64,000 nt of DNA from Promethearchaeota archaeon (GTDB lineage: Archaea > Asgardarchaeota > Lokiarchaeia > Sigyniarchaeales > SOKP01), in assembly GCA_016839745.1 (NCBI GenBank), contig JAEOTS010000141.1, positions 2,138 through 66,137 of the forward strand, read 5' to 3'. Below the pieces are notes generated by a model that was given only the letters and a program-made list of their open reading frames with translations, ran no database searches and was not told the DNA's origin. The first letter of the stretch is position 1, and each line of letters starts with the position of its first letter. The position numbers and the translations under genes were made by a program. Shown piece after piece: positions 1 through 39,772 of this stretch.

Positions 1-843
1 TGTTTCCTTCGAACTTAGTACATCTTTTGGGATGAATTTTGTGCTGTATATAACCATACTAAATGAAATTCCAGTCAAAAATGCACCTAATGGAAAGATA
101 TATAGTTTTGAAAGTCTAAAAAAGGAAATGTTATCGTGAGTCATTGAATTGAAAATGGAAACTTTTAGGTTTGACTTTTTTTGAGATGTGGGTATTTTTT
201 TTATAAATCTAAGGCGGATTATGTCATTGAAATCTCTAAGAATAAAAAAACCACCAAAAAATAAGAAAAAATAAAGAAGGATCATTATTATCGCTAAATA
301 TACTTTAAATTCCTTTAAAAAAATATCAAACTGGATTGCATATGTACGGAATGCAAAAAACAGTATACCTAATCCGACTAAGATTAGACCAAATAATCCC
401 TCGTGCATATGGTATTTACCAATAAAGTTTCCTTCAAATTTTGAAGTAAATTTCTTGATGTAATAAACAATTAAAATCAATAAACCAGGTGAAACGATAG
501 ATGTTGATATAAACAATACAATTTCTAAAAAATCATCACTCGTGTTTGAAAGTAAATTTAAATCAAGGATAGAGTCGAAATGAGAAACATTCCACGCAGT
601 TATCCCAAAAATAATAAGAATAAGATACAATTTTTTAAAGTGGCTGATTTTGATTATTAATACTAAGATAAAAAAGAAAATGTTTAACAATATAAGCGTT
701 GTAGCTCGCATGACAGTTAATTCATACGAATACCACTCAAACAATTGCTTATTAAGCAAATAATCTGTTAAAGAGAAGTAAACTAAGAGAGATAAAGTGA
801 AGATAATTACGATTTTAGTTAGAATCAAATAACTTCTTTTCAT
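1..843 (-). CDS. polytopic membrane protein, C-terminal part cut by window edge
   Basis: Not in the ORF track. Manual reverse-strand translation from ATG (843-841) gives MKRSYLILTKIVIIFTLSLLV... and stays open for all 281 codons to position 1. It contains several long hydrophobic segments. Confidence 0.6.
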   Translation of the reverse strand, partial: MKRSYLILTKIVIIFTLSLLVYFSLTDYLLNKQLFEWYSYELTVMRATTLILLNIFFFILVLIIKISHFKKLYLILIIFGITAWNVSHFDSILDLNLLSNTSDDFLEIVLFISTSIVSPGLLILIVYYIKKFTSKFEGNFIGKYHMHEGLFGLILVGLGILFFAFRTYAIQFDIFLKEFKVYLAIIMILLYFFLFFGGFFILRDFNDIIRLRFIKKIPTSQKKSNLKVSIFNSMTHDNISFFRLSKLYIFPLGAFLTGISFSMVIYSTKFIPKDVLSSKET

Positions 844-3190: not shown

Positions 3191-3230
3191 AAATTTTTAA
3201 TATTTATAGAAAAAATAATATAAATTTTTT
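3191..3230 (+). repeat. 40-nt AT-rich conserved intergenic element, copy A (TATA-like inverted repeat)
   Basis: aaatttttaatatttatagaaaaaataatataaatttttt matches 12696-12735 with 3 mismatches by my hand alignment. It contains ATTTATA ... TATAAAT inverted arms. Confidence 0.6.
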
Positions 3231-5375: not shown

Positions 5376-7607
5376 ATGTTTAATTACGAGAGAAAAAGCG
5401 GAATTGATCTCGAGTATAAAATAAATAAACGCATTACCCTTAAGTTGGAGAATGGGATCACGTATATCTACATAAATGGCATTAAGTTCATTCAATGTAT
5501 GCGATTAACAATAGATATACCGAAAGAAGATATACACTTATATGATGAAGTTGATTCTATAGATGAGGCAGCCAAGTTGTATAGTAAGCATGTATATCAA
5601 AATAGAATCGTAACAGATCCTATGGCGGCTCCTGTGCATGGATTAAGGCATGACATAACTCCCGAACAGGAATTTTGGGGACATTGCTCAAACATTGAGG
5701 CTTGGGTTGAGAACGATTACGATACGAGAATATTAATGAGCAATATATCATTTCCTTTGTTAAGAGAATTGGCTCAAAATGGAGATTTATTGGCCAATAG
5801 AGTCTTCAAAGAAGAAATTGCCCTAAGACTCGAGAGTGGGTATCCTTCAGTTGTTCATTATCTCCTTGAACAAGATTTTTTGAGATTTTTTACTCCTTGT
5901 GAGTTTAAAACGATAATAGAGACCACAAAACTAGTAGAAAACCTCGTGCTTAATCAGAGTTTGTTTATGAAATTTCTAATCTATTCTACTAAGTTATTTC
6001 CAAATCAAATTAAACACATCATATTAAAATTAATATTGCTCCCTAATGGAGAAAACATTCTGATGTCTTTTCTGGCAGAAACCTCAAAAAATTATTATTA
6101 CGGAATAGATGGCAAGTTTTTTAATTCAATTATAGACGATTTGAAAGGAATGTCAAATCAGATTAGTATTGAGCATAGAAAACCTTTTAAGAAAGCTATT
6201 TTAAAAATCGAAGAGTATCTTTCTGAAGAAGACGAGAAGATGAGAAATAAATCAATTAAAGATTTTTATAAGATTATTGTACTTGGGGACCCTGCTGTAG
6301 GGAAAACCGAGCTTCTCGCGAAATTTTCATCACAATTTGAGGAGAAATATTTAAGAACCGTTGGTGTCTCAATTAAAAAATGGTCCATTGAACTGAAAGA
6401 TTATAACGCCACGGTAAATTTGATGTTTTGGAATATCGCAGGACAACCGCAATTTTATATGCTTCATCGCCCATATTTCAAAGACGCAGATGGAATTCTC
6501 CTAGTATTTGATCTTACACGTTCAAATACGTTTAGTAACATTAATAATTGGTATAGCTCAGCTGTTAAATATGGATTAAGTGGAATACCGAGAATATTAG
6601 TAGGAAATAATCTTCATTTAAAAAACGAGAGGAAAATAATACTACCAATGGGAGAACATCTAAGTGATAAATTAAACGCCCCTTATTATGAAACTTCAAC
6701 TCTTACTGGAGAAAATATTAAAGAAGTGTTCGAAAAAATCGCAGAGTTGGTATATTTAGCTCCAGAACGGAATAAAACTTTAAAAAATGAACCTATTTCC
6801 TCCAAAAATAACGAAAAAATATCTAATGATAATAACAGATTGGAAAAACCGTTAGATTGGAAAAGCAAATTAATTTTACTTAAAGAGATACAACCCTCCT
6901 CTGAGGGTAGTGCCACGGAGAAAGAGGGTGAAATCCCAATAGAAATAGATGAGAGAGAAAAACGAGCTTTAGAAACTGTTTTTAGACAATTTAAAGGTTC
7001 AAATCTAGGAAAATCTCAATCTAAGCTTATGAGTTCATTAGAAACGAGAGATCTAGTAGTTTTAACATGTAAATATAAGTTACAAACAGTATTTTTTTGG
7101 TTTTTTGGATTGTTGTTTCTTTTTTTGTGTATTACTCTTCTTTTTGGTCTTGTGTTGTTTATATTTGGTGGATTTGGACCATCGGGTGGAGTAACGATGG
7201 TAATGATTGTTTTGCTATTTCCTTTATCCTTTGGAACTAGTATTTGGTTGATTAGGTACGCACTCACTTTAAAACATTTCTTTATAGTATTACACTATCG
7301 AGGAATTTACTACAAAAAAATCGGTGAACCAAAATTCATAGCGTGGGGTGATATAGCTTGGATGCTAGGTTACACGAAGTATTTTAAAGGACAGCCAACC
7401 AAAGGAAGGGTTGTTAAAATTTATTTGAAATCTAAAAACAAAGTGCGCTTTTACTCAGGTGATTATATCTATAAAGATAAGTTTTTTGAGTTTGATGATG
7501 TTTTTATTTCATATAAATTTAGACGGTGTCCCTTTTATTCAAGGGATCATAACTCATCTGAAGTAAGTCCAATAGGATCCCGCGGGAATCCTTTAGGGTA
7601 CTTTTAA
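5376..7607 (+). CDS. multidomain Rab/Ras-like small GTPase: N-terminal helical-repeat region, GTPase, TM segments, C-terminal membrane-flanked domain
   Basis: G1 is GDPAVGKTELL and G3 is WNIAGQ. The G4 position reads GNNLHL instead of NKxD. The hydrophobic block FFWFFGLLFLFLCITLLFGLVLFIFGG...VMIVLLFPLSF follows the GTPase. Confidence 0.7.
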   Translation: MFNYERKSGIDLEYKINKRITLKLENGITYIYINGIKFIQCMRLTIDIPKEDIHLYDEVDSIDEAAKLYSKHVYQNRIVTDPMAAPVHGLRHDITPEQEFWGHCSNIEAWVENDYDTRILMSNISFPLLRELAQNGDLLANRVFKEEIALRLESGYPSVVHYLLEQDFLRFFTPCEFKTIIETTKLVENLVLNQSLFMKFLIYSTKLFPNQIKHIILKLILLPNGENILMSFLAETSKNYYYGIDGKFFNSIIDDLKGMSNQISIEHRKPFKKAILKIEEYLSEEDEKMRNKSIKDFYKIIVLGDPAVGKTELLAKFSSQFEEKYLRTVGVSIKKWSIELKDYNATVNLMFWNIAGQPQFYMLHRPYFKDADGILLVFDLTRSNTFSNINNWYSSAVKYGLSGIPRILVGNNLHLKNERKIILPMGEHLSDKLNAPYYETSTLTGENIKEVFEKIAELVYLAPERNKTLKNEPISSKNNEKISNDNNRLEKPLDWKSKLILLKEIQPSSEGSATEKEGEIPIEIDEREKRALETVFRQFKGSNLGKSQSKLMSSLETRDLVVLTCKYKLQTVFFWFFGLLFLFLCITLLFGLVLFIFGGFGPSGGVTMVMIVLLFPLSFGTSIWLIRYALTLKHFFIVLHYRGIYYKKIGEPKFIAWGDIAWMLGYTKYFKGQPTKGRVVKIYLKSKNKVRFYSGDYIYKDKFFEFDDVFISYKFRRCPFYSRDHNSSEVSPIGSRGNPLGYF

Positions 7608-7770
7608 ATCTATATCTTAATGTCCTGAATCGATATGTAGAGAGATTTCTATAGATTTATTCCCATTCAGTATTTTTAATTGTTCGCATTCCATGTTTAA
7701 GACCTAAAAGACATATCATCGTTATTATACGTAAGCGTAAAAGCTTAAGTAGAAAAACAGTAATTAGTAT

Positions 7771-7850
7771 TGGCGCTTCGCTTAGAGCGTGGCTTGGCGT
7801 CCTACTGCCCCTTCGGAGCGGACGCACCCGAGTCGCCACGGTGGGATTGT
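7771..7850. ncRNA. candidate structured small RNA (GC-rich island), class unknown
   Basis: About 52 of 77 nt are G+C by my count, in a ~30% GC background. Nested complementary segments are GTGGC(7789-93)/GCCAC(7835-39) and GCGTCC(7797-7802)/GGACGC(7820-25), plus an apical 5-bp helix. The helix has one C-A mismatch on the + strand that becomes a G-U wobble on the - strand. Confidence 0.45.
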
Positions 7851-7992
7851 ATTAACTGAGGTGACTGTCAAAATATCATTTTCAGAATTGTTTTACTCCT
7901 GAGATTGCGAATAATTAATAATTTGATAAGATTTAAATACCTAAATATTGTTTGATATGTAAACATAATAGCGCATATGAATAAGGTGCAAG

Positions 7993-8493
7993 ATGAATCT
8001 ATCTGAGTGGAAAAAGGAGGTACCGCTTATTTTTAAAAAGGTTAAAGATGACGTGCAACAGGTTTTTGATCAACATCGAAAGGGATTAACTTTAGGATTA
8101 GTTGATATGGGTATGTTCCGTGGAGGATTTATAGGTGGGATGCACTTTCAACCTGGAACAGAGATTGTTATGAATATAAGTCCGCTAAGAATCATCCTCA
8201 AAACTCAAACATATGAGATTGTCTGGGCTTATACATATCATATCCTTCTCAACTTATATCTTGAATCATTAGGCTTGATTGATGAGCAAGTTTGTAGAGA
8301 AGCGACCCTAAAAGTAAGTAAGGAAATTTATAAAGAACCAGATCATCCCGCAATACTTATGGCAACAAACGGGATTGAAACTGTTGTTCCAGATCTAAAA
8401 ATAACATACATTCCTCCTGATCGAAAGCCTGATGGGATGCCTATTGAATACATCAGAGAGTTCGATGAAGAATACGAAAATTACTATTCATAA
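7993..8493 (+). CDS. hypothetical protein
   Basis: 166-aa ORF in a 5' intergenic context. No motif recognised. Confidence 0.5.
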   Translation: MNLSEWKKEVPLIFKKVKDDVQQVFDQHRKGLTLGLVDMGMFRGGFIGGMHFQPGTEIVMNISPLRIILKTQTYEIVWAYTYHILLNLYLESLGLIDEQVCREATLKVSKEIYKEPDHPAILMATNGIETVVPDLKITYIPPDRKPDGMPIEYIREFDEEYENYYS

Positions 8494-8522: not shown

Positions 8523-9248
8523 TTAAACCTTTTTTGGCTTCTTTTTACAGGAATGAGTAAATTGATCATCTTGAGTAAGGAACTTCCCGCAATACTGGCA
8601 ATTAACTTCAACTTCGGTTACTTCTTCTTTTAAGGGAGTACGAATCTGTGATTGAGGTGCCGGTTCGAAATCATCAGGGGGTCTCGGATGAGTGAAAATG
8701 TATGGATATATAAAATGATCGTCGTCATCATCATCCTTGGGTAAGAGCTTCCTTTTTTTACCAACAGTGCGTTTAAGAAATTCTATTGCTAATATTTTAC
8801 CATTCTCAGATAGTATTCTAGGAGAATAATCTTCAGCAAAAAATACACCCTCTGGAATTGCTCCAACTCTAGAAATCTCCTTAGTAACTTCCTTCTTTCC
8901 AAGAAAATTTTGCACTTTCTCGACGACAGAGTATGCGTGATCACCAATAATTATTAGTTCTCGTTCAAAACCATCAGGTATTTTAATTTCTTCTAATTTT
9001 TGCATTATCAAGTCAAAATTAGCATGAGTTTCTTCCTGAACGAGTGTTAAAAACTTTTCTTCCCATTTGGTAATAGCTTGTTTTACTAAGGCTTGTATAG
9101 TTTTCATTATTTGTTGTGGATTAATATTTGGAATTGCTACTATCCTTAATACCCAATCTACGATAAGATTTTGATTAGGAAAAACAGACCCACTCAAATC
9201 TTCATCCTTAAAAATGTAAGAATTTATTAAGGTATTCCCCTTTAGCAA
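8523..9248 (-). CDS. protein with C-terminal Pro-rich + C2HC zinc-knuckle + KKKPKK tail (frame open upstream to 9353)
   Basis: The C-terminus YPYIFTHPRPPDDF...CQYCGKFLTQDDQFTHSCKKKPKKV is paralogous to the tail of 9370-10677. The track start is TTG, and the in-frame upstream sequence reads like an HTH segment. Confidence 0.6.
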   Translation of the reverse strand: MLKGNTLINSYIFKDEDLSGSVFPNQNLIVDWVLRIVAIPNINPQQIMKTIQALVKQAITKWEEKFLTLVQEETHANFDLIMQKLEEIKIPDGFERELIIIGDHAYSVVEKVQNFLGKKEVTKEISRVGAIPEGVFFAEDYSPRILSENGKILAIEFLKRTVGKKRKLLPKDDDDDDHFIYPYIFTHPRPPDDFEPAPQSQIRTPLKEEVTEVEVNCQYCGKFLTQDDQFTHSCKKKPKKV

Positions 9249-9369: not shown

Positions 9370-10677
9370 TTATGTTTTTTTTGGCTTCTTTTTACAAGAA
9401 TGCGTAAGATGATCTTCTTTAGTAAGCTCCATTCCACAATATTGACATGCAATTTTTATTTCTGATTCCTTTTTCTTTGGAGGATGGCGAAGTTGCGCTC
9501 GACCTGCCAACGCTAAGTCGCCAGGTGGTTTTGGAGGTTTGAAAATAAAAGGAAAAGGAAAACGATCGTCTCCGTCAAACTTAGATTTCTTTGCCAAGTG
9601 CTTTGGATCCTTTGTATAAATCACTAAATTATTGTCTTCGCTACTTCCAACAATTGAGAACAATAATTCTTCTCCGTCCCGATCTATTAAGAAGCGGTCA
9701 CGGTCTTCATAGAGTCGAATCGTGATGTTATCCAAACTTTCTAATTCTGCTAAAAGTTTCGCATCTTCTTCAAGGCTTGGATCAAAATTGCACATGATCT
9801 TCAAGTTTACCGAAAAACGCACCTCGTACAGATGCAAATCTTGCAGATCGTTTATATCGGGAACTACAATTGTCACATAGTGAACCGCATTTCCTAATAT
9901 TTCTCGAATCTTTTTCAAAATCTCAGATTTAGGAATCACCATGAACGTTGAATCGATGATTTTTGCTTCAGCCTTCGAAGCAAGGTATTTCCGCAATCTC
10001 TCGTTTTCAATTTCTAACGCTTCCAAAATTTCATCGGCTTTTTCTAATTCCCCTTTTAAGATGGTTAGTTTTTTCTGATATTCTTCGATTTCTTCATCTT
10101 TCTCTGCTAAGAGATCTTTTTTAACCGTAGATGATTTCAACTCTTTTACTTCTTCTTCTTTCAAATTAATAGATGTTTCTAATGCCTTAATCTTCTGGTT
10201 TTTTATTTCTAATGACTTGCTAAGCCTATTAATTTGTTGCTCTTTTAAGTTTATTGCGTCGATCATGGTTTTTATTTGATCATCTTTCAGGTTTACCGAT
10301 TTAATTAAATTATTTATTAGTTTATCATCGTCATTAAATCCTTTGAGAAGTAAATATCCATCAGCACCAAGTTCTTTTCCTTTCTGGATATCTTCAAAAA
10401 AATTCTTAGCAGTATAAAGAATTACTAAAATTTTAGGATATTTTGACTTGATCTCAGCCAAAATATCATAGCCACTCATACTAGGGAGCAATATATCAAG
10501 CAATACGAGTGCTATTTCATTGTGTTTTTCTTTAATAATGTCTAGTGCGTCATATCCATTGCTACAAGTGATAGTTTCGTAATTCTCGAGTTGTAAAAAC
10601 TTCTCAGTCAGATTAGTTATATCTTCATTTTCCATAACGATCAAAACTTTTTTCAATGCTGGCATAAGAAACTCCAA
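9370..10677 (-). CDS. response-regulator receiver + coiled coil + alpha/beta domain + C2HC zinc-knuckle tail
   Basis: CheY-like N-terminus (KKVLIVMENED ... LVLLDILLPSMSGYD ... LYTAKN). INLK(D/E)xx(I/V) heptad-rich coiled coil. Tail FPFIFKPPKPPGD...CQYCGMELTKEDHLTHSCKKKPKKT. The likely real start is ATG at 10665. Confidence 0.75.
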   Translation of the reverse strand: MEFLMPALKKVLIVMENEDITNLTEKFLQLENYETITCSNGYDALDIIKEKHNEIALVLLDILLPSMSGYDILAEIKSKYPKILVILYTAKNFFEDIQKGKELGADGYLLLKGFNDDDKLINNLIKSVNLKDDQIKTMIDAINLKEQQINRLSKSLEIKNQKIKALETSINLKEEEVKELKSSTVKKDLLAEKDEEIEEYQKKLTILKGELEKADEILEALEIENERLRKYLASKAEAKIIDSTFMVIPKSEILKKIREILGNAVHYVTIVVPDINDLQDLHLYEVRFSVNLKIMCNFDPSLEEDAKLLAELESLDNITIRLYEDRDRFLIDRDGEELLFSIVGSSEDNNLVIYTKDPKHLAKKSKFDGDDRFPFPFIFKPPKPPGDLALAGRAQLRHPPKKKESEIKIACQYCGMELTKEDHLTHSCKKKPKKT

Positions 10678-11526
10678 TTATGTGGCATCCTTCTCATTTT
10701 TCTGAGCATACAATAATTCGGCTACTCTTTGGAAAACGAGAGTTACGTTCTCCCCAGTAGCTAAGGAGACTTCAAAATAGGGAGCGTTCAACTTTTTACT
10801 TAAATTTTGCACCATCGGGTTAATAATTTTGCGTTCTGACTCTGATTTTGCGTCATTGTTAATCCCTACTAATATTCTCGGAACTCCGCTAAGACCATAC
10901 TTGACGCAGGATTGCCACCAGTTATTGACATTACTAAAAGTGCTAGAACGCGTTGTATCAAAAACTAAAATAACGCCGTCAGCACCAATAAAGTATGGTC
11001 TGTGGAGCATATAAAATTGTGGTTGTCCGGCGATATCCCAGAACATCAAGTTGATGGTTTTATTAATTTTATCAAGAGTAATTTGTTTTTTTAAAATTGA
11101 AACGCCGACGGTTGGAAGATTTTTATCTTCAGATATATCCGTGGCAAATTTAGCAAGGAGTTCTGTTTTACCGCATTCAGGGTCACCAATCACGATAACT
11201 TTATATATTGACTCAGTATTTCCTTGGAGTTTAACACTATCTTCATTAGAAAAAGTTGGCTTAATTTTTTCGCTTTTTTCAATTGGAGTTAAATCTGAGT
11301 CAGAGGGTGTTCTATTTTTTAAACGGGATTTTTCTAATTCTTCTATTTTAACTTTCGCGTCTTCTAATTCCTGATAAACTCTATTTAATTCATTTTTTGT
11401 ATTTGCAAGTTCCCGTTCCAAATCGTTTACTTTTTTCCGTAGATCTAGTAAAAATCTTCCCTCCACTTTAATCATCCTATCGGGATATCTTTCTGCTCTT
11501 TCCCACATTGTTTTTAGGATTTTCAT
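10678..11526 (-). CDS. coiled-coil + Rab/Ras-like small GTPase (paralog of the GTPase in 5376-7607)
   Basis: G1 is GDPECGKTELL and G3 is WDIAGQPQFYMLHRPYF (the same extended motif as in 5376-7607). G4 is degenerate (VGINNDA). N-terminal ELANTKNELNRVYQELEDAKVKIEELEK is a coiled coil. Confidence 0.75.
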   Translation of the reverse strand: MKILKTMWERAERYPDRMIKVEGRFLLDLRKKVNDLERELANTKNELNRVYQELEDAKVKIEELEKSRLKNRTPSDSDLTPIEKSEKIKPTFSNEDSVKLQGNTESIYKVIVIGDPECGKTELLAKFATDISEDKNLPTVGVSILKKQITLDKINKTINLMFWDIAGQPQFYMLHRPYFIGADGVILVFDTTRSSTFSNVNNWWQSCVKYGLSGVPRILVGINNDAKSESERKIINPMVQNLSKKLNAPYFEVSLATGENVTLVFQRVAELLYAQKNEKDAT

Positions 11527-12274: not shown

Positions 12275-12695
12275 TTTGTTTCACTAAGTTAATTTTTTAT
12301 TTTTTTCTATCGATTATGAAAAAAGAAATATTAGATTTTTGATAAAAATGCGAGATCACTATCCCATCTCCACCAATAACTAGCATTTTCTTATTGATAT
12401 CATTGATTTTTTTTTATTGATTTATTTTCTCTTTTTTGAATTTGTAATCAGGGAACGCTACCATATGCACAAAGTACTCAATTTCATCCATGAGGATTTT
12501 CTTTACCAGTAATGATTTCTTTACAATTTTGACATTCAAGGCTCATAAGTCATTGATTTTCCTTTATATCTACTGTATTTGAATGTCCACAAAATGGACA
12601 TCTTACTAAGCTGTTATATATCATATTGACCAGTTATAATTTTCAACATAATATAATTTTGGATTATTTATCAAAATTTATACTATTTTAGACCC

Positions 12696-12735
12696 AAGTT
12701 TTAAATATTTATAGAAAAAATCATATAAATTTTTT
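12696..12735 (+). repeat. 40-nt AT-rich conserved intergenic element, copy B
   Basis: aagttttaaatatttatagaaaaaatcatataaatttttt is 37/40 identical to 3191-3230. It lies ~80-120 nt upstream of the MFS gene start (12816). Confidence 0.6.
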
Positions 12736-39687: not shown

Positions 39688-39772
39688 TGCGGGAAGGGAG
39701 ATTCGAACTCCCGAACCCCTACGGGACTGGATTCTGAGTCCAGCGCCTTTGACCAAACTTGGCAATTCCCGC
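39688..39772 (-). tRNA. tRNA-Leu (anticodon CAG), type II with long variable arm
   Basis: Hand-folded cloverleaf: GCGGGAA/TTCCCGC acceptor, CTGGA-CTCAGAA-TCCAG anticodon arm, variable arm CCC-GTA-GGG, T arm GGGAG-TTCGAAT-CTCCC, discriminator A. No encoded CCA. Confidence 0.93.

Follow-up and report, generated by a model that had tools for sequence, protein, structure and literature searches.

A conserved GC-rich non-coding island of Loki-type Asgard archaea: a candidate hairpin RNA unit and recombination joint

Klein, Misulovin and Eddy reportedly described, in PNAS in 2002, small ncRNA genes as GC-rich islands in AT-rich archaeal genomes; to our knowledge, very little is known about the non-coding elements of Asgard archaea. 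In T4-type phages, the motifs called PeSLs are better kept than the surrounding genes, lie at the borders of exchanged ORFs in hyperplastic regions, and provide homology for modular shuffling. PeSLs are 'mobile regulatory cassettes', i.e. composite promoter-terminator stem-loop motifs (PMC2839356, PMC4122927).

The island described here lies in a 64-kb stretch of DNA, hereafter the window, from a Promethearchaeota (Loki-type Asgard) MAG of 3.5 Mb, 32% G+C and 89% completeness (G000). It is a genuine non-coding element, and we judge it real because it is conserved in other genomes; its fold gives no such proof. The element is selected, limited to one lineage and recombination-prone. From sequence comparison we tentatively read it, with somewhat less than even confidence, as a non-coding module under selection that is most likely a hairpin RNA unit of the + strand and also a recombination joint; the window contains a solitary copy of it with a mutated 3' tail.

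Parts and conservation of the island

The stretch 7771-7850 of the window, TGGCGCTTCGCTTAGAGCGTGGCTTGGCGTCCTACTGCCCCTTCGGAGCGGACGCACCCGAGTCGCCACGGTGGGATTGT, is its richest 80-mer in G+C, the tRNA-Leu being lower too: 0.66, where the whole window averages 0.319 and the remainder of the surrounding 385-nt intergenic gap has 0.27-0.29. The gap (7608-7992) is bordered by the ORFs 5376-7607, for a 743-aa Ras-family protein, and 7993-8493. A preceding sequence-only reading had pointed to this place as a candidate novel structured RNA, and the observations on which it drew could be reproduced, namely the gap itself, the 52 G+C among the 77 nt of 7771-7847 (0.675 in our recount), three nested complementary segments and a C-A mismatch in the apical stem (7809/7817). 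The candidate held in so far as the island is non-coding and as well kept in relatives as a tRNA gene; its status as a structured RNA was not established, with a single compensatory pair in the stem P1 and an unexceptional folding energy. The parts of the window copy are listed in Table 1.

Table 1. Parts of the window copy, with positions counted in the window
Feature	Position	Strand	Remarks
Upstream AT-rich segment	7655..7719	+	77% identity to L027 9605-9672; common only to the closest copy-bearing relative, G015
'Class C' leader GCTTAAGTAGAAAAACAGTAATTAGTATT	7743..7771	+	Same leader in G015, L058, L059 and L120
5' segment GGCGCTTCGCTTAGAGC with CTTCGC motif	7772..7788	+	Columns 14-30 of alignment A2
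P1 5' strand GTGGC	7789..7793	+	Partner 7835-7839
P2 5' strand GCGTCC	7797..7802	+	Partner 7820-7825
Apical hairpin GCCCC-TTC-GGAGC	7807..7819	+	Stem 7807-7811/7815-7819; C·A mismatch invariant
P2 3' strand GGACGC	7820..7825	+	Partner 7797-7802
3' internal loop ACCCGAGTC; in most copies GCCCGAGTC	7826..7834	+	Invariant except for an A/G polymorphism at the first base
P1 3' strand GCCAC	7835..7839	+	Partner 7789-7793
3' tail GGTGGGATTGTATTAACTGAGGTGACTG	7840..7872	+	Degenerate against the consensus GGTGGGAGTGCATTTTT(n)GAG; oligo-T run gone
60-aa ORF	7657..7839	-	By-product of composition

Upstream of the class C leader, a further 65 nt are common to the window copy and G015, and the segment 7655..7719 has no second occurrence in its own genome. 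The leader carries an A-rich TATA-like box about 15 nt 5' of the GC-rich part, for which a promoter function is only inferred by us. In an archaeal small-RNA gene a TATA/BRE box would be expected some 25 nt upstream. An A/T-rich box stands at similar spacing in leader classes A and C and is missing from class B, and the distance of the TATA-like box is not constant over all classes. The 5' segment tolerates indels, with 7-nt and 2-nt deletions in some copies of alignment A2, and its start, AGTATT..GCTTCGCTTA, is common to the present element (island 1) and to 'island 2' of relatives.

Alignment A2 comprises 15 distinct full copies, in which columns 29-87 form a nearly invariant 59-column core. 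Identity among island copies is 85-98%; that of the window's tRNA-Leu in the same genomes is 86-99%. Where a gene for a ribbon-helix-helix (RHH)-type protein is linked to the copies, they agree at 85-95% and that gene at 69-82% in nucleotides and 49-70% in amino acids. A neighbouring 166-aa protein has orthologues of about 60-65% identity. Since the identity resembles that of tRNA-Leu and is far above that of the linked gene, it points to purifying selection at the level of a structural-RNA gene. As judged from these comparisons, the element is under purifying selection and is no neutral scrap; its conservation goes beyond neutral expectation, as is looked for in a small-RNA gene. The patchy, mosaic distribution, which could not be seen from the sequence alone, brings in horizontal movement and so a part of what the sequence-only reading had named as fatal to its candidate, a fragment of foreign GC-rich DNA; even so, selection on the element is clear.

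The parent locus, its modules and the distribution of copies

The setting of the island is best seen in two relatives, G015 and G008, where 85%-identical flanks enclose a variable centre of 8-11 kb. The locus contains short conserved non-coding modules that follow one another in a single order and direction ('piece A', island 1, 'module V', D1, island 2). This order is the same in G015 and G008, whereas the genes between the modules are different. Those genes vary by genome, and include a Ras GTPase, an LRR protein, zinc-ribbon proteins, ABC-type ATPases and unknowns. Upstream of the island, on its strand, stands the RHH-type gene in 10 contexts; its product of 105-112 aa was assigned by eye as a tandem ribbon-helix-helix protein, Pfam having given no match. 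The protein appears to consist of two such repeats (..FVSVRVPKSKVKEYREAL.. occurs twice), its gene is GC-rich (43-54%), and it has 56 homologues, for example at L058 2487-2813 (-), L053 3789-4106 (-) and L027 7697-8014 (+). Loci of these homologues all have piece A, some together with islands 1 and 2 and others with module V alone. The cargo comprises defence-like genes, for an AbiLi-like ATPase with a PDC-M38B-like partner, a HEPN protein, nucleases of the NYN and HNH types, Schlafen/AlbA2 proteins and an ABC-type ATPase, further an N6 methyltransferase, and signalling genes for Ras/Roc GTPases and LRR proteins. On this gene content the parent locus is a place where accessory and defence genes accumulate, a hot spot whose start is marked by the RHH-type gene. 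A scan of about 55 neighbouring ORFs revealed no integrase, recombinase or transposase, and the orientation of the island relative to neighbouring genes is inconsistent.

The sister modules deserve description in their own right. Piece A (L027 8803-8920; L029 10735-10847; L030 10004-10119; also L113, L114, L120 and L123) is 115 nt long and 92-96% conserved, occurs in every locus with the RHH-type gene, and has a TTTAAAA box and a 10-bp hairpin, GCAAGGAAAC..GTTTCCTTCGC; the hairpin reads GCAAGGAAACCCCTTCGGTTTCCTTCGC. Module V (L058 about 560-700 (-); L114 2163-2286; L113 3640-3768; L123 2197-2269) is 90-97% identical between loci, and some copies are fused to the 5' half of island 1; it contains a T-arm-like GGGGTTCGATTGCCC, but as a tRNA it is unrecognised by ARAGORN and Rfam. 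Island 2 (L027 12317-12425; also L029 6919-7025, L030 6309-6403, L031 800-907 and G017) occurs in 5 of the 42 genomes of the genus, 90-93% identical between genomes and with four CTTCGC; its AGTATT..GCTTCGCTTA start and its end, a T-run followed by GAG, are as in island 1. A conserved ORF of about 50 aa, MENKKITTIIKRPTKKGDQYYFSIPIEFIRSKKIDPKKDYEIQIF.., lies at L027 about 12470-12620 (-) and also in L028, L029, L030 and L031; by eye it looks like an AbrB/SpoVT-type DNA-binding protein, and it is divergent from a gene starting MSIKFGRAHGNGYHD. In G008, tandem 69-nt repeats of 82-90% identity (L029 7445-8074) are found in a 671-aa LRR gene beside the island copy.

Occurrence of the island itself is narrow. 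BLAST within the family found it in about 6 of 135 genomes, all of one genus, and a covariance model built on the 15 copies (R1) was positive in 5 of 161 genomes of the class, all in the window's genus, the class-wide search giving no distant homologue beyond it. The island is single-copy in its own genome, and two copies each are present in G035 (4.2 kb apart) and G008 (0.5 kb apart). A metagenome scan added 17 true loci, five of them on contigs that terminate inside the element. Bacterial matches to a 19-base core pattern, as well as two on viral contigs, fell within GC-rich coding sequence and were set aside as chance, and phage and plasmid collections gave no match to the element. A wider family sharing a leader GTATT..CTTCGC was also dropped, the pattern counts in eight genomes being equal to those of a reversed-pattern control. 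When diverged copies were sought via homologues of the linked RHH-type gene, the two known sequence types came up again, with no new stem variants. When an empty site was sought via orthologues of the flanking genes, those of the 166-aa gene lay elsewhere, with no island there, and the 743-aa GTPase had no full-length orthologue.

In the contigs of four to six sediment runs, the element core forms a node of 80-190x depth against 3-35x in its flanks, one core being joined in metagenomes to many flanks with three leader classes (A, B and C) and several trailers. There are also hybrid copies with shared breakpoints near 7818-7820, where the 5' half of island 1 passes into module V or some different sequence. 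Of four runs compared, three (X21, X22 and X35, but not X36) show the part corresponding to 7787-7818 at 1.5-3.5 times the depth of the 3' half, and this part continues into at least two other 3' sequences in metagenome contigs. The DNA runs X1-X4 contain the window itself, and X21, X22 and X35 contain many copies. A practical effect is that metagenome assemblies of these organisms break at the island sequence. Run X34 yielded only a single low-depth contig, of 151 nt. The sequence was found in none of the RNA runs; four metatranscriptomes from the same studies are without a match, which carries little weight either way.

The window copy is not part of a parent locus but follows a Rab-like GTPase gene, and a search of its own genome for the RHH-type gene, piece A, island 2 and the other modules found none. 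Its 59-nt core is intact, the sole difference from the majority being at a site polymorphic in five other copies, and its 3' tail has four window-specific changes and no T-run (GGGATTGTATTAAC against the consensus GGGAGTGCATTTTT), with homology to G015 and L059 that extends to about 7872. Contigs of run X23, which is from another sample, match the upstream part of the window context at 90-95% identity, and other X23 contigs diverge into different sequence just past the island. Ras-family genes lie within 3 kb of the element in 5 of about 21 contexts, in genomes holding about 11-27 such genes each, a rough enrichment among contexts that are not independent. This copy could be either a relic or an orphan that still functions.

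Three repeats in the window were noted besides: a 40-nt AT-rich direct repeat at 3191-3230 and 12696-12735 (92.5% identity in self-comparison), the 3' ends of adjacent genes for 241 and 435 aa (8530-8723 and 9377-9570, 69% DNA identity), and two Rab-like GTPase domains in inverted orientation (6267-6610 and 10859-11205, 68% identical).

Known classes, structure and rival explanations

The sequence-only reading had seen no sign of a tRNA, 5S, SRP, RNase P or C/D RNA, and Rfam, ARAGORN and motif checks agree. In the whole window Rfam 15 recognised at the gathering score only the tRNA-Leu at 39688-39772; at E <= 10 there was no match on the island when 7600-8000 was searched, and seven related loci gave, with gathering and permissive thresholds, chance-level matches elsewhere only. 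The scan proposed in that reading thus leaves the island outside every Rfam family. ARAGORN assigned no tRNA at the island or in 10 copy-bearing loci. A tRNA has a cloverleaf with the T-loop GTTCRANYC and is recognised by ARAGORN or RF00005; the element has no such T-loop motif, and a tRNA-like consensus fold, with a 7-bp end stem and a discriminator A, has stem pairs that break in 5 of 15 copies and shows no covariation. C/D sRNAs carry box C RUGAUGA and box D CUGA beside a terminal stem, and RUGAUGA is absent from both strands of the window copy and the consensus. In H/ACA sRNAs a two-sided pseudouridylation pocket is followed by ACA directly 3' of the lower stem; the internal loop here is asymmetric, with 2 nt facing 9 nt, and P1 is followed by GGTGGG, with no ACA. 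An archaeal SECIS belongs to the UTR of a gene that contains an in-frame UGA, shares the orientation of that gene and has a GAA/A internal loop; our element varies in orientation to its neighbours, the upstream gene stops with TAA, and GAA occurs only in the - strand apical loop. The element has no hammerhead core that would suggest a ribozyme.

Mobile-element classes fared no better. Integron attC sites have core sites R'' (RYYYAAC) and R' (GTTRRRY), one repeat family per cassette and IntI nearby; here core sites are absent, the modules are mutually different, and the neighbours scanned include no integrase. MITEs and IS ends have terminal inverted repeats, are flanked by a target-site duplication and occur many times per genome; the ends of the element share at most 11 of 30 positions, its copies number 1-2 per genome, and no consensus exists just 5' of its left border. 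CRISPR repeats form arrays with spacers of 25-50 nt; here a locus has no more than two copies, separated by 0.5-4.2 kb. Nor does the element code for protein. The 60-aa ORF had been taken for a by-product of G+C content, and indeed its frame is lost in other copies and has no Pfam or NCBIfam match; every open frame is broken among copies by a 7-nt indel, a 2-nt indel or TGA. Island peptides matched no family in Pfam and NCBIfam, the minus-frame peptide had no homologue in a collection of 5.8 billion proteins, and a frame resembling a hydrophobic C-terminal tail (GIGASLSAWLGVLLPLRSGR) meets a stop or indels in other copies and matches no family.

Membership of a known class (a tRNA or tRNA-fragment att site, a C/D or H/ACA sRNA, SECIS, ribozyme, attC, MITE, CRISPR repeat or short gene) therefore appears very improbable, with zero Rfam matches even at E <= 10, ARAGORN blank in the 10 copy-bearing loci, T-loop, C/D boxes, attC core sites and terminal inverted repeats all missing, copies separated by kilobases, reading frames broken, and most genomes of the genus lacking the element. 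What speaks for it is a tRNA-like contrast in G+C, a position at the edges of variable DNA like that of tRNA genes, and the low tRNA count of the own genome, which suggests that unusual tRNAs are being missed. ARAGORN gives only 16 tRNA genes in that genome (3.5 Mb, 89% complete); many of its tRNA genes probably carry non-canonical introns and so escape standard detection.

The folding evidence is slight. Folding energy lies within the range of shuffled sequences for every copy on both strands; against dinucleotide shuffles z of the window copy is +0.64/+0.81 (+ strand) and -0.66/+0.15 (- strand), so that its complementarity does not exceed what its composition predicts, and the + strand consensus has -38.3 kcal/mol (z = -1.43). 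The lowest-energy + strand consensus fold, a long helix with several G·U and a 7-bp end stem, shows zero covariation over the 15 copies and is broken by variants. In the nested fold of the sequence-only reading, 92.5% of cells pair in the same copies. P1 has a compensatory double transversion (GTGTC/GACAC) in one copy, G021, and C has independently become U three times, each time with G·U as the result on the + strand. P2 is nearly invariant, its only deviations being a change to G·U and a mismatch in G021, and P3 hardly varies; the G021 copy breaks both P2 and P3. The copies are closely alike, the compensatory change comes from G021 only, and the observed covariation is equalled by 25 of 500 shuffles. 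Of the conservation and covariation that the earlier reading proposed to look for in relatives, tRNA-gene-level conservation was found and covariation came down to one P1 pair. Conservation and high G+C do not imply structure here, because island 2 is conserved and GC-rich, yet folds worse than its shuffles. CUUCGG loop motifs occur on the + strand of island 1 and piece A.

As to the strand, an RNA function would most likely be read, we infer, from the + strand, to which we lean because of the P1 G·U changes, the T-run and the consensus folding energy. At least four T follow the element on the + strand in 10 of 15 copies and TTTA in three, the remaining two, including the window copy, having no run. 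A structured RNA of the - strand seems to us quite improbable, more so than any rival except a known class. It would turn the invariant apical C·A into G·U, it would pair the P1 variant of L054 (GTGAC), which is a mismatch with G·U only if read from that strand, and its centroid fold retains P2 and P3; but the three P1 variants pair on the + strand only, no T-run follows the element on the - strand in the 15-copy alignment, and the consensus fold is weaker (-27.0 kcal/mol, z = +0.18). The earlier suggestion that the C-A mismatch weakly favours the minus strand is on these grounds probably wrong, P1 offering G·U three times on the + strand against once on the other. The main rival is an element acting as DNA only, either as an operator or binding array for the RHH-type and AbrB-like regulators or as a recombination joint, which we consider rather unlikely though ahead of the other alternatives. 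The CTTCGC motifs of piece A, island 1 and island 2 (four in the last) all point the same way, and the motif is rare elsewhere in the 20-kb loci; this, the RHH-type gene upstream on the same strand in 10 contexts, the conservation of island 2 without folding, the common hybrid breakpoints near 7818-7820 and the missing folding-energy signal all fit such an element. Nevertheless, some 60 contiguous invariant bases are long for a protein-binding site, a DNA site has no need of 66% G+C, P1 changes keep pairing, in one case by double transversion, the roughly 55 neighbouring ORFs include no recombinase, integrase or transposase, and the own genome has the island with neither the RHH-type gene nor other modules.

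A different question is whether the window copy is an inert relic of the parent locus, carried in with the GTPase gene block by recombination or horizontal transfer, still uneroded and without function there. We think this unlikely. In its favour, the island stands alone in its genome, lacking the RHH-type gene, piece A and island 2; the tail has four changes and has lost the T-run, the leader class is common to G015, whose module adjoins a Ras gene, and 5 of about 21 contexts have a Ras-family gene no more than 3 kb away. Against this, the 59-nt core is intact, and the X23 contigs with the same upstream context at 90-95% identity imply that the copy has persisted in a lineage.

The tentatively preferred reading, a selected + strand hairpin unit that is also a joint, would work as follows. 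A module of about 95 nt at its core, or about 130 nt with leader and trailer, is under strong purifying selection in a few species of one Loki-type genus; transcription from its A/T-rich box would yield a compact hairpin RNA (P1 of 5 bp, P2 of 6 bp and the apical stem), and this putative transcript would end at the oligo-T run. An oligo-T run is the normal archaeal terminator, and a hairpin transcript with such an end would make the module a small RNA gene or a hairpin-plus-terminator unit. A constant module between changing neighbours may in addition serve as homology for the exchange of gene blocks, and a role as homology joint would account for the assembly breaks as well as for the variety of flanks and the hybrid copies. 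In the window, where the copy sits apart from any parent locus, the hairpin core is kept and the T-run lost. About 60 contiguous invariant bases with 66% G+C in a 32% genome resemble the structural RNAs here; against a hairpin RNA stand the greater depth of the 5' half in three of four runs, its fusions to 3' sequences unable to form P1 or P2, the changing orientation to neighbouring genes, the uneven placing of the TATA-like box and the missing T-run of the window copy.

Comparison with known systems

The interest of the element lies in about 60 nt that hardly change between species with proteins of only about 60% identity, while it is confined to an accessory locus plus scattered solitary copies. 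If it is an RNA, it would be a new lineage-specific small RNA tied to a hot spot of defence and signalling genes; if it is a recombination joint, it would hint at an exchange mechanism for accessory genes, including the expanded small-GTPase families. A bolder and, in our estimation, improbable proposal is that island 1 and its sister modules are new Asgard-specific non-coding units, small RNAs or portable hairpin-terminator cassettes, which organise the hot spot and serve as joints for shuffling defence genes and Ras/Rab/Roc GTPase and LRR genes among Lokiarchaeial genomes, the window copy being a footprint of transfer by the Rab-like GTPase gene.

Several known systems offer partial parallels. 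With the archaeal small RNAs found as GC-rich islands the element shares a GC-rich intergenic position, tRNA-like conservation, a predicted hairpin, an oligo-T end in 10 of 15 copies and the lack of a family assignment; it differs in that its folding energy is non-significant, covariation is almost absent, and it is known from DNA alone. Unlike housekeeping sRNAs, it has a patchy distribution and contexts that vary by copy. tRNA genes at the borders of genomic islands are likewise short conserved RNA-like sequences edging variable, horizontally exchanged DNA, with partial or hybrid copies nearby and assembly breaks, but the present element fails every tRNA test, has no integrase near, and is missing from most genomes of the genus. 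The attC sites and the repeats of sedentary chromosomal integrons are also imperfect palindromes of about 100 nt between accessory or defence cassettes; here, by contrast, there are neither R''/R' core sites nor an integrase, and unlike modules stand in a fixed order, whereas in integrons one repeat family travels with each cassette.

The PeSLs come near in design. Both are short intergenic stem-loop motifs with transcription signals, which for our element are predicted, and both are conserved in nucleotide sequence far above the neighbouring genes and lie at the borders of swapped ORFs; in G015 and G008, a conserved intergenic motif indeed stands at such borders within the 85% flanks. A PeSL is one motif with many repeats per phage genome, whereas here several distinct modules keep a fixed order, with 1-2 copies per genome, in archaeal chromosomes. 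Compared with the PeSLs, the promoter-like box here precedes the hairpin and the T-run, an arrangement more like a putative tiny transcription unit.
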